Below, piece after piece: positions 46,034 through 48,499 of a stretch of DNA of 49,917 nt (positions within the stretch are counted from its first letter, which is position 1; every line of letters starts with the position of its first letter). This stretch comes from a virus (Duplodnaviria; Heunggongvirae; Uroviricota; Caudoviricetes): IMG/VR virus record IMGVR_UViG_2718218131_000006, one strand, 5' to 3'. The translations under genes were made by a program, and so were the position numbers. Under the pieces are notes generated by a model. That model was not told the origin of the DNA and did not search any database. It saw nothing but the letters and a program-made list of their open reading frames with translations.

Positions 46034-48499
46034 ATGAGCACTGATAAAGAAGAAATTGCACTATATTACGAAGCCAAAAATGACAAAGTCAGAAAACGTC
46101 TTGGGATTAAAGGCGGTTTTTACTGGCGCACAGCAAAAAAATTATCGGTTGCAATATCACGCGGTGTTGTCGCAATGGACGATGCAGGATTTGACGAAGA
46201 GGATTTTAAAAAACCTGTTCGCGTCCATTTACCCGTTGTGAATGACCTTCCTCCGGAAGGCGTGTTTGATACCGAATTCTGCAACCGATACGAAAAAGGC
46301 GGGGAAGATGGTATCACAATGGTACTTATCGCGCCCTCGCCCTCTGTTCAGGATAAACCAGCCAGCACTGACAATACCAACGTCAACGGCGAAGACATGA
46401 CTGAGATTGAGGAGAATATGCTCCTGCCGGTTTCAGGTCAGATTCTGCCTGTTCGATGGCTGGCACAGCACGGCAGCGAAAAACCGATCACACACGTTTC
46501 GCGGGGCGAACTACGCGCATTACATAACGCACAGGATGAAAAACTTCCCGCCGTTACCGCGCTGGCCATCTCAAATAAAGCAGCGCAACTCGAACCGCTG
46601 GAAATTCGCGATCTCCACAAACTGGTTCGTGACACTGACAAAGTTTTCCCTAATCCTGGTAATTCAGACCTGGGACTGATGACTGCTTTTTTCGAAGCCT
46701 ACCTGGGCGCTGACTACACCGATCGCGGTCTGCTGACAAAAGAGTGGATGAAAGGAAATCGTGTTTCACGCATCACCCGCACGGCTTCCGGTGCTAATGC
46801 CGGTGGAGGGAACAAAACCGATCGCAATCCGAATTTAGTACACACCTTCGATACGCTGGATGTGGAGATTGCAGCGGCCACACTTCCGATGGATTTTAAT
46901 ATTTATGAAATTCCGGGCAGCGTTTATCGTCGCGCAAAAGAAGTCGTCCGGAAGAAAGAAAGTCCGTTCAAAGAATGGTCCGCGGCACTTCGCGCAATCC
47001 CGGGTATCCTGGATTATTCCCGCGCCGCTATTTTTGCACTTATCCGGAGCGCACACCCTGAGTTTTATCATTACCCGGGACGTCTTCAGGGGTATATCAA
47101 CGCCTATTTAACAGAGACTGATCACGAGAACCCTTCCGAGGAAACTCTCGCTGCTGCACGACATACACCGGAAAAAGATATCCTGGAAGAAGTTAACCGC
47201 GAACTGGCTGCTGAACGCGAAACAGAAGAAGAAAAAAATAATGAGGAAAAATCACAACCGTCTGACGCAATGGCAGATGAACAGGCAACGGCTGAAACAA
47301 TGGAACCGGATACAACTGAACATCGCCAGGACACGCAATCGCTGGATGCTCAGGCACAGATAGATCCAGTTAATCAGGTAAAAGTTACCGCTGACGAAGT
47401 AAACAAAATTATGCAAGCAGCCAATATCAGCCAGCCTGACGCCGATAAGTTGCTTGCGGCCTCTCGCGGTGAATTTGTTGCAGGGATTAGCGACCCGAAT
47501 GATCCGAAATGGGTGAAGGGGATTGAAACCCGCGATTCTGTGAACCAGAACCAACAAGAATCGGAACAGAACGACCAGAAAGCGGAACAAAACAGCCCAA
47601 ATGCGTTACAAAACGAGCCAGAAACGAAACAGCCTGAACCAGTGGCGCAACAGGAAGTGGAAAAAGTTTGCAATGCCTGCGGTCAGTCTGGCGGGGATAA
47701 CTGCCCTGACTGTGGTGCGGTGATGGGCAACGCAACATACCAGGAAACATTCGATGACGAGAATCAGGTTGAAGTTCAGGAAAATGATCCGGAGGAAATG
47801 GAAGGCGCTGAACATCCACAAAAGGAGAATGCTGGCAGCGCTCAGGACCACGCCAGCGATAATGAAACTGGCGAGACGGCAGATCCCTTAATTGCAGTGA
47901 ACGGTCATCACATTATCACATCCACCAGCAGAGTGTGGTACCACCTGATGATCGACCTTGAAACAATGGGAACCAACACCAATGCGCCCATCGTGGTTAT
48001 TGGTGCGGTTTTCTTCGACCCACAAACAGGGGAAATCGGGCCAGTATTTTATATCGTTATCAGTCTGACTGACGCAATGAATACAGGGGCTGTTCCTGAC
48101 GGTGGAACCATCGAATGGTGGCTGAAGCAGTCCAGTGAAGCCAGAGCTGCCATTTTAACAGACCAGGTAAAACTGAAGGATGCCCTTTCGCGGTTTCGGG
48201 AGTTCATCAACGAATACTCAGATGAAAAATTAGTTCAGGTATGGGGTAATGGTGCAACTTTCGATAACGCAATTTTGCGCACCTCATACGAACACCTGGA
48301 CATCCCCTGCCCGTGGCGCTACTACAACGATCGCGATGTACGCACAATCGTTGAGCTGGGGAAAGCCATAGACTTCGATGCCAGAACGGCTATTCCATTC
48401 GAAGGTGAGCGCCATAATGCACTTGATGACGCCCGTTACCAGGCAAAATACGTTTCAGCTATCTGGCAAAAACTGATCCCGAGTCAGGCTGATTCTTAA
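46034..48499 (+). CDS. Large phage protein with C-terminal DEDDh (DnaQ-like) 3'-5' exonuclease domain, acidic linker and a Cys4 cluster
   Basis: Exo motifs MIDLETMG, WGNGATFDNAIL, HNALDDARYQAKY; CNACGQSGGDNCPDCG; N-terminal 450 aa unassigned. Confidence 0.75.
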   Translation: MSTDKEEIALYYEAKNDKVRKRLGIKGGFYWRTAKKLSVAISRGVVAMDDAGFDEEDFKKPVRVHLPVVNDLPPEGVFDTEFCNRYEKGGEDGITMVLIAPSPSVQDKPASTDNTNVNGEDMTEIEENMLLPVSGQILPVRWLAQHGSEKPITHVSRGELRALHNAQDEKLPAVTALAISNKAAQLEPLEIRDLHKLVRDTDKVFPNPGNSDLGLMTAFFEAYLGADYTDRGLLTKEWMKGNRVSRITRTASGANAGGGNKTDRNPNLVHTFDTLDVEIAAATLPMDFNIYEIPGSVYRRAKEVVRKKESPFKEWSAALRAIPGILDYSRAAIFALIRSAHPEFYHYPGRLQGYINAYLTETDHENPSEETLAAARHTPEKDILEEVNRELAAERETEEEKNNEEKSQPSDAMADEQATAETMEPDTTEHRQDTQSLDAQAQIDPVNQVKVTADEVNKIMQAANISQPDADKLLAASRGEFVAGISDPNDPKWVKGIETRDSVNQNQQESEQNDQKAEQNSPNALQNEPETKQPEPVAQQEVEKVCNACGQSGGDNCPDCGAVMGNATYQETFDDENQVEVQENDPEEMEGAEHPQKENAGSAQDHASDNETGETADPLIAVNGHHIITSTSRVWYHLMIDLETMGTNTNAPIVVIGAVFFDPQTGEIGPVFYIVISLTDAMNTGAVPDGGTIEWWLKQSSEARAAILTDQVKLKDALSRFREFINEYSDEKLVQVWGNGATFDNAILRTSYEHLDIPCPWRYYNDRDVRTIVELGKAIDFDARTAIPFEGERHNALDDARYQAKYVSAIWQKLIPSQADS

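Follow-up and report, generated by a model that had tools for sequence, protein, structure and literature searches.

A predicted domain-swapped RecE-family protein with a DEDDh exonuclease domain in RecT-less lambdoid prophages of Enterobacterales

In Escherichia coli K-12, the Rac prophage gene recE (b1350) encodes a protein that ends in a PD-(D/E)XK 5'-to-3' double-stranded DNA (dsDNA) exonuclease, and the structure of this nuclease domain has been described (PMC11611040). On the N-terminal region, that paper says only that full-length RecE improves linear-linear recombination, and a literature search on this region and on the Pfam families PF06630 and PF16473 returned essentially nothing. 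Here, we describe a relative of RecE encoded at positions 46034..48499 (+) of IMG/VR virus record IMGVR_UViG_2718218131_000006, a 49,917-nucleotide stretch of Caudoviricetes DNA that is referred to in full as the window. Judged from its sequence, the 821-residue product (91 kDa, pI 4.7) is a RecE-family member in which only the PD-(D/E)XK nuclease is exchanged for a DEDDh domain, of predicted 3'-to-5' type. The N-terminal module, the acidic linker, a DKLLAASRGEF...DPNDPKWVKG island within this linker, and a Cys4 cluster are homologous in the two proteins, and both genes lie in an early-left operon near xis-int.

The nearest characterized relatives of the DEDDh domain come from a different setting. 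Phage T4 DexA is a 3'-5' DNA exonuclease whose structure (PDB 8KEL/8KEN) was solved in a 2025 paper (PMC12153337). That paper also reports that the E. coli DexA homolog EcD ("HREX"; HAK9828821.1) degrades T4 DNA, which contains 5-hydroxymethylcytosine (5hmC), and not unmodified dsDNA, and EcD supplied from a plasmid protects E. coli from T4 (PMC12153337). Bacterial DexA homologs are reported there to be commonest in Escherichia, Citrobacter, and Klebsiella, and HREX enzymes to be recognizable by replacement of the tetramer-forming residue D90 with Ala together with retention of the 5hmC-recognition residues W152 and D169 (PMC12153337). On the phage side, a second 2025 study places DnaQ-like 3'-5' nuclease genes near int in the early-left operons of lambdoid phages, describes nuclease-less "RecE-2" proteins from the same phage group, and leaves the roles of both open (Genome Res 2025; PMC12315714). 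Within these categories, the 821-residue protein fits the DnaQ-type nucleases and a 675-residue variant discussed below fits "RecE-2"; the sections of that study that were read contain neither a fusion of a DnaQ-type nuclease to the RecE N-terminal region nor a strict split between loci with and without RecT.

Homology to RecE accounts for most of the protein. Pfam family PF06630 (Exonuc_VIII) matches residues 56-189 (E 6.8e-27; 95 bits against a cutoff of 25), and residues 1-621 match positions 1-603 of the 877-position NCBIfam profile PRK09709, "exodeoxyribonuclease VIII". BLASTP aligns residues 58-620 with residues 50-591 of K-12 RecE at 57% identity; no alignment continues past RecE residue 591, leaving the PD-(D/E)XK nuclease unmatched, and a tblastn search of the window with RecE residues 600-866 gave a best match of only E 0.9. 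Because the last third of the profile is unmatched, the score of 917 bits stays below the NCBIfam NF007259 equivalog cutoff of 1269. AlphaFold2 (AF2), run with a family alignment, predicts a confident fold for residues 1-400 (46034..47233, +), with a mean predicted local distance difference test (pLDDT) score of 92.1. No structural relative of this module was found in the PDB or BFVD: Foldseek against BFVD returned nothing at E <= 1e-3, and the family profile produced low-complexity matches only when searched against PDB sequences.

The most conserved core of the N-terminal module spans approximately residues 215-345, and its conserved columns consist mostly of structural residues with a few Arg, Glu, and Trp. 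The possibility that the module is itself an enzyme was considered and dropped, as column conservation shows no catalytic-looking signature; for this reason, we treat it as a putative binding or scaffolding module. A preliminary description of the locus had regarded the N-terminal half as unplaceable and only the C-terminal 200 residues or so as interpretable, views that the RecE matches overturn. It had also drawn the N-terminal region at about 450 residues, and the folded part ends near residue 400. Of the checks that it proposed, structure prediction yielded a confident fold with no relative in the PDB or BFVD, and comparison with RecE established homology over the N-terminal 620 residues while leaving the RecE nuclease without a counterpart.

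The C-terminal domain (residues 634-821; 47933..48496, +) was assigned through Pfam, Foldseek, and phmmer. PF16473 (Rv2179c-like) matches residues 637-811 over positions 2-177 of its 177 (E 3.1e-69; 232.6 bits against a cutoff of 27), and the Pfam RNase_T family matches at 2e-5. The predicted catalytic residues are D641 and E643 (in MIDLETMG), D744 (ATFDNAIL), and H794 and D799 (HNALDDA), conserved in 18-19 of 20 aligned family members; here, the DnaQ-like motifs that had been read from the letters alone were borne out. Rv2179c of Mycobacterium tuberculosis, after which PF16473 is named, belongs to the same family but, unlike the fused form, comes from a non-phage genome and is a small exoribonuclease that stands alone. 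In a phmmer search of PDB chains, T4 DexA (8KEL) was matched at E 2e-8 and nothing else at E <= 0.01. DexA was also the best Foldseek match (E 1.4e-7; template modeling score 0.67-0.73), followed by Orn/REXO2, RNase T, ERI-type enzymes, and Cap18; for the top matches, namely DexA, Orn/REXO2, and RNase T, the Foldseek probability was 1.00.

DexA shares the Pfam family, the fold, and the DEDDh residues with this domain, although identity is only about 24%. The position equivalent to D90 of DexA is D716, which is Asp or Glu in 17 of the 20 family members, with EcD alone having Ala; W152 corresponds to Tyr764. With D90 kept and Tyr at the W152 position, the domain looks DexA-like rather than EcD-like by the residue criteria of PMC12153337.

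For a direct comparison with EcD, an EcD-like protein of 189 residues was recovered from viral contigs through the EcD primer sequence in the supplement of PMC12153337; the primer sequence was absent from all the enterobacterial loci examined. The recovered protein has the reported Ala78 and MIDTET start, and it aligns with the DEDDh domain over its whole length at 35% identity (E 3e-34). Its gene lies on IMG/VR contig IMGVR_UViG_2671181127_000013 (our locus L120, 6404-6970, minus strand) in the early operon of a P2-like prophage, whose locus contains, besides the exonuclease, genes for an integrase, a Cox-like protein, a Dam-type methylase, and gpA. The text of PMC12153337, as far as it was searched, does not mention a prophage origin for EcD. 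The two proteins thus have in common a homologous DEDDh domain and carriage by a prophage; EcD differs in being a stand-alone protein without a RecE module, in lying beside a Dam-type methylase, in having Ala at the D90 position, and in its reported 5hmC selectivity.

The two folded parts are joined by an acidic, largely disordered linker (residues 401-633; 47234..47932, +; pI 4.1, charge about -34), recognized from composition, AF2, and BLASTP. Over residues 391-640, K+R minus D+E amounts to -38, with 22% D+E and 18% Q+N, and the net charge of the whole protein is about -58. In the full-length AF2 model, pLDDT falls below 50 at residues 403-451, 495-544, and 560-631: the confidently folded residues 1-400 are followed by a disordered stretch (403-451), a segment with two short helices (453-477; helices 453-462 and 470-477), a second disordered stretch (495-631), and the well-folded nuclease (634-818, pLDDT about 90). 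An acidic, low-complexity linker had been noted before, and composition and predicted disorder agree with it. BLASTP shows it to be homologous to the K-12 RecE linker, and the same linker occurs in ordinary RecE and in the nuclease-less form.

Two elements stand out within the linker. The first is an island (residues 453-494; 47390..47515, +) comprising the two short helices and DKLLAASRGEFV.GISDPNDPKWVKGI.TRD, which is near-identical in K-12 RecE; its DPxDPxW motif is present in 25 of 85 family representatives, and the ratio of nonsynonymous to synonymous substitution rates (dN/dS) in the island is 0.04-0.16 among informative pairs. The second is the Cys4 cluster CNACGQSGGDNCPDC (C546, C549, C557, and C560; 47669..47713, +), a possible zinc knuckle that is common to K-12 RecE. 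The four Cys residues had been reported in the preliminary description with a CxxC-x9-CxxC spacing; the actual spacing is CxxC-x7-CxxC. The cluster is specific to the E. coli lineage rather than family-wide, occurring in only 6 of the 85 representatives, though across all three C-terminal variants; the Pfam DZR match to it is not significant (E 0.054), and pLDDT there is only about 52.

The two architectures differ in the annealase partner. A total of 72 loci, all from different species with one genome per species, were sorted by C-terminal type; the census covered loci with a RecE-type N-terminal peptide pattern, plus-strand open reading frames (ORFs) of at least 90 residues, and 6 kb upstream. 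RecT was detected with a Pfam scan plus a family hidden Markov model (HMM), as single-sequence phmmer seeds proved too insensitive outside Escherichia. A RecT-family gene was present in 47/47 loci with a RecE nuclease and in 0/18 loci with a DEDDh domain (Fisher p = 2e-16), and the first downstream ORF was PF03837 in all 44 distinct RecE-nuclease loci scanned. The distance from the stop codon to int was 270-793 nt in the DEDDh loci (n=18), a gap that fits xis only, against 1381-6437 nt in the RecE-nuclease loci (n=47). No Pfam family of annealases (single-strand annealing proteins) or of Gam was found in 99 upstream ORFs of the DEDDh loci.

The window itself gave the same result. No RecT, Bet, lambda-type Exo, Gam, or RecE nuclease was found by tblastn, the RecT HMM had no match in a six-frame translation of the window, and a PHROG scan of ten early-region ORFs returned no annealing-protein family. 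A recombination role had been suggested earlier from the position of the gene beside xis and int. That position is confirmed (xis, 48561-48830; int, 48799-49917), and the idea that the gene fills a nuclease slot gains from the homology of residues 1-620 to RecE; a classical role with an annealing partner is contradicted by the absence of an annealase from the window and from all 18 loci. It is therefore unlikely that the protein forms half of an exonuclease-annealase pair. The label "exonuclease VIII" is misleading because the equivalog score, the PD-(D/E)XK domain, and the RecT partner are all lacking.

The gene is intact and evidently maintained. It begins with ATG, preceded by a GAGG Shine-Dalgarno sequence at 46023..46026 (+), 7 nt 5' of the start codon as read from the upstream sequence, and it forms a single uninterrupted reading frame. 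The exact 821-residue protein has already been deposited in NCBI from 89 contigs (e.g., APT03335.1) under the names "3'-5' exoribonuclease" or "exodeoxyribonuclease VIII", and at least 80% of the gene was found in 1217 of 5426 complete E. coli genomes, including prophages with effector genes in pathogenic strains. Inducible or isolated phages that carry it include vB_EcoS-640R1, Evi, and Tritos. What we describe is accordingly less novel than the preliminary description supposed: it is a widespread, catalogued, and functionally uncharacterized variant of a known family.

The frame is intact in five orthologs, one of them from an isolated phage, with a whole-gene dN/dS of 0.18-0.29. By part, informative pairs gave 0.11-0.16 for the N-terminal module, 0.18-0.31 for the linker, and 0.16-0.23 for the DEDDh domain, with one close pair outside the linker range at 0.45. 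All three parts are under purifying selection, and the ORF is both real and intact. Evidence of intragenic mosaicism was also obtained, one ortholog pair having dS = 0 in the N-terminal module and dS = 0.71 in the nuclease. In several genomes, RefSeq's Prokaryotic Genome Annotation Pipeline (PGAP) splits the intact ORF into a "RecE family exodeoxyribonuclease" pseudogene and a 536-606-residue "exonuclease" coding sequence (CDS) that starts at an internal Met; in NZ_CP148453.1, it calls the ORF as one CDS. Because five orthologs are intact and dN/dS is low in every part, this split is an annotation artifact of model-based calling on a domain-swapped protein.

A separate observation concerns phage PPompW_699 (L123, 1676-4143), in which a 4-bp deletion is annotated as shifting the frame of the homologous exonuclease gene. 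This phage belongs to an effector-carrying family of enterohemorrhagic E. coli (EHEC)-type prophages and has an insertion sequence (IS) in place of its lysis region; some carriers of the gene are thus decaying.

The N-terminal module turns up in more than one context. Among 1.84 billion representative proteins searched exhaustively, only 221 clusters were related to residues 1-400, and a scan of one genome per species confined the family to Enterobacterales, apart from a few metagenome bins labeled Veillonella, Atopobium, and Pseudomonas that are suspected to be mis-binned. A local domain census on 50%-identity family representatives resolved a conserved core (approximately residues 241-390), two alternative N-terminal modules (RecE type and "Evi type"), and a minimum of three kinds of C terminus, which carry the RecE nuclease, the DEDDh nuclease, or, with no nuclease at all, a hydrophobic tail of 58 residues. 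This last type is exemplified by a 675-residue protein with the RecE N-terminal region from E. coli CP056642.1 (L007, 5001-8770), which ends in the conserved hydrophobic tail …LEKLDWKRQVVIAAVYGLCANPAGIASAPLIPGIAMMIANKLENFG… Its gene and the start of gam overlap, and a RecT-family bet and then a YqaJ-type exo come next. About 17 diverged representatives of the family share this tail, which qualifies it as a third C-terminal module in its own right. The Evi-type form shares with the 821-residue protein only residues ~270-360, the linker, and the DEDDh domain.

The phage background of the gene fits a class described recently. PMC12315714 reports that Chi-rich lambdoid phages without a recombination module grow better with RecBCD. 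The window contains 16 Chi sites (GCTGGTGG) against 2.1 expected, a number reached in 0 of 100 shuffles, and thereby falls into the "no Rec module, Chi-rich" class as far as RecT, Bet, lambda Exo, Gam, and the RecE nuclease are concerned, with SSB and Abc2/GamL-type genes not specifically searched. Thirteen of the 16 sites lie on the minus strand, which corresponds to the top strand of the conventional prophage map, and 14 are clustered within 7.5 kb (28983-36440) on the side of the nin, Q, and lysis genes, adjacent to the right end; the others are at 47922 and 49747. In a comparison of four phage or prophage genomes, the DEDDh-gene carriers Evi and Tritos proved Chi-rich as well, with 15 and 11 sites. 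A general rule that a DEDDh-type gene implies a Chi-rich phage was rejected, as it holds for the window, Evi, and Tritos and fails for PPompW_699.

One Chi site (47922..47929, -) falls precisely at the junction of the linker and the DEDDh domain, in the codons for T-S-T-S (residues 630-633), and is oriented like the other Chi sites of the phage. The same site is present in six other DEDDh-type genes of E. coli and coliphages and in the distant homolog P0221 (~33% identity); neither K-12 recE nor the nuclease-less variant has it. It may be either a hotspot for cassette exchange or a mere reflection of the conserved peptide.

Upstream of the gene lie dicB (45568-45756, +) and a DUF1482/ydfD-like gene (45753-45956, +), both as annotated in a record whose copy of the exonuclease gene is 100% identical; downstream, xis and int follow on the plus strand, making the RecE-family/DEDDh gene the last before xis-int. 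The order dicB, DUF1482/ydfD-like gene, exonuclease gene, xis, int recurs at different integration sites and is the same in phages vB_EcoS-640R1, Tritos, and PPompW_699. No sigma-70-like promoter site was found in 45000-48900, where 4.4 would be expected. Lacking a promoter-like site of its own, the gene is probably transcribed by read-through with the DicA/CI-repressed, dicB-type early-left operon after induction.

Taken together, the explanation that we consider probable on balance is that the protein is a domain-swapped, RecE-family early-left protein of Enterobacterales lambdoid prophages that acts as a partner-independent 3'-end DNA exonuclease and relies on host RecBCD and RecA. On this account, it would be expressed from the early-left operon after prophage induction, and its C-terminal domain would probably use two-metal-ion DEDDh chemistry to shorten strands from free 3' ends. 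These strands are most likely DNA, given that DNA is what T4 DexA and EcD, the nearest solved or characterized relatives, act on. The N-terminal module and linker would probably serve as a targeting or scaffolding unit tethered in cis, bringing the attached effector to the same partner or DNA-end substrate as in RecE. As the prophage is Chi-rich and has no recombination module of its own, the most likely picture is of a protein working unaided on DNA ends in the lytic cycle of a phage that depends on host RecBCD and RecA.

Several points weigh against this explanation. PF16473 takes its name from the exoribonuclease Rv2179c, and the next-best folds are oligoribonucleases, such that RNA or short oligonucleotides are possible substrates. 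Chi richness is not universal among carriers, the defective PPompW_699 having only 4 Chi sites together with its frameshifted gene. The targeting role proposed for the N-terminal module comes solely from its re-use with different effectors, and the enzymatic activity, substrate, and phenotype of the fused architecture are predictions from sequence, models, and analogy. According to PMC12315714, 3'-to-5' exonucleases usually depress homologous recombination, which makes a role as a RecBCD helper less than self-evident, and DnaQ-type genes near int often occur alongside canonical Rec modules; this last pairing was not seen in the 18 DEDDh loci sampled.

Annealase-independent DNA-end processing is ranked first, and the serious rival, although unlikely, is a prophage defense or superinfection-exclusion nuclease of the HREX kind that degrades incoming modified (5hmC-type) phage DNA. 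The neighboring dicB is known to affect phage susceptibility. In addition, EcD as reported in PMC12153337 affords protection and is selective for T4 DNA, the recovered EcD-like protein is prophage-borne and 35% identical across the domain to the one described here, and the reported range of DexA homologs (Escherichia, Citrobacter, and Klebsiella) overlaps that of the RecE-fused family. Nevertheless, the evidence for EcD comes from plasmid expression, and EcD is a stand-alone protein of 189 residues without the RecE module; the domain in question resembles DexA, with D716 kept and Tyr at the W152 position. Moreover, the gene is distal in a repressor-controlled early operon and lacks a promoter-like site of its own, which makes expression in the lysogen, a requirement for defense, doubtful.

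A broader proposal, which is distinctly unlikely, holds that the RecE-type N-terminal module and linker are a general delivery platform of enterobacterial lambdoid phages. The platform would dock on one common target, such as a DNA end or a host protein of end processing or replication (RecBCD is one candidate), and would carry a 5'-3' nuclease in company with RecT, no nuclease beside lambda Red, or a DEDDh nuclease in phages without a recombination module. The DEDDh form would then condition ends for RecBCD- and Chi-dependent, recombination-driven replication, and the junction Chi would be a hotspot for effector exchange.

Two further alternatives appear quite improbable, to a like degree. 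In the first, the protein would serve anti-defense or host takeover, its nuclease destroying immune nucleic acids such as retron multicopy single-stranded DNA (msDNA) and signaling or guide oligonucleotides, or its acidic linker acting as a DNA mimic. The early position of the gene and the strong negative charge, about -58 overall and about -34 in the disordered linker, are consistent with such a role, and Cap18, a DEDDh exonuclease associated with the cyclic oligonucleotide-based antiphage signaling system (CBASS), is among the fold matches. Authentic RecE, too, degrades retron msDNA, but it triggers the retron system rather than inhibiting it (10.1101/2020.06.22.160242). The linker is likewise not specific to the DEDDh variant, since ordinary RecE and the nuclease-less form have it too. 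In the second, the enzyme would act on RNA, for example in 3' trimming of phage or host transcripts or of small RNAs (sRNAs) from the same operon such as DicF. The exoribonuclease namesake of PF16473, the strong fold matches to Orn, REXO2, RNase T, and ERI, and a DicF-like sRNA about 650 nt upstream all point in this direction; against it, the closest solved structure and the characterized homologs, DexA and EcD, are DNases, and the domain is fused to a module otherwise found on a DNA exonuclease amid DNA-recombination gene neighborhoods.

The remaining two explanations are already contradicted. A decaying remnant or a pair of fused or fragmented genes, as the PGAP division of the ORF in several genomes and the frameshifted PPompW_699 copy might imply, is scarcely tenable given a frame that is unbroken in this ORF and in four further orthologs from E. 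coli or phages, the single PGAP CDS in NZ_CP148453.1, dN/dS values of 0.11-0.31 in every segment with informative dS, and an architecture kept in full down to ~33% identity in other genera. Least credible of all is an ordinary RecE ortholog, the exonuclease half of a RecET-type two-component recombinase: the NCBI and phage-record names ("exodeoxyribonuclease VIII"), the strong N-terminal homology, and a match to PHROG 607 speak for it, but the equivalog score falls short with only profile positions 1-603 of 877 matched, the PD-(D/E)XK domain is absent, the predicted polarity is opposite, and RecT is missing from the window and from every DEDDh locus while accompanying every true RecE.

These findings matter for annotation, as database names for the protein are inconsistent and sometimes wrong, and a RecE scaffold that bears a nuclease of predicted opposite polarity and has no annealase corrects the functional inference drawn from them. 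Their value lies in the light shed on the RecE N-terminal module and in the clean split between RecT-linked and RecT-less forms. The role of the N-terminal 600 residues of RecE is a long-standing question that becomes experimentally tractable here: the module occurs on two unrelated nucleases and free beside lambda Red, its 400-residue fold is predicted with confidence, and the linker motifs are candidate partner-binding sites. The protein also connects two independent 2025 reports, one on DexA-like HREX nucleases and the other on Chi-rich lambdoid phages without a recombination module.

Further observations concern the surroundings of the gene and its relatives. The dicB-ydfD region of the window is 85% identical to the dicF-dicB-ydfD region of the K-12 Qin prophage. 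At Rfam gathering thresholds, no RNA was found near the gene; a full-length but sub-threshold match to DicF lies at 45329-45379 (+; 34 bits against a gathering threshold of 48, E 2e-5) and ends in a terminator-like hairpin (45347-45374). It is adjoined by an STnc100-like match at 45377-45600 (+), also sub-threshold at 34 bits.

The K-12 Qin pseudogene ydfE was considered as a truncated ortholog of the 821-residue protein and rejected, its translation being unrelated to the RecE-type N terminus and belonging instead to the Evi-type module. Phage Tritos (L016, 26518-29686), with the order dicF, dicB, ydfD, 823-residue exonuclease gene, xis, int, is seemingly an intact counterpart of the K-12 Qin early-left region (L004, 3383-4999). 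On that view, K-12 ydfE would represent the N terminus of an Evi-type RecE-family/DEDDh gene cut short by IS2.

The idea that the window corresponds to NZ_CP148466.1 throughout was likewise abandoned. The gene alone is 100% identical, and the rest is a mosaic with rearrangements and 81-99.8% identity in aligned blocks; annotation was transferred from NZ_CP148466.1 only where identity was about 99% or more. One such transfer, from a 99.6%-identical segment, places a RelE/ParE-type toxin and a helix-turn-helix antitoxin at ~35525-36350 (+) in the nin region, where the pair lies inside the Chi-dense stretch and runs opposite to the surrounding early-right genes.

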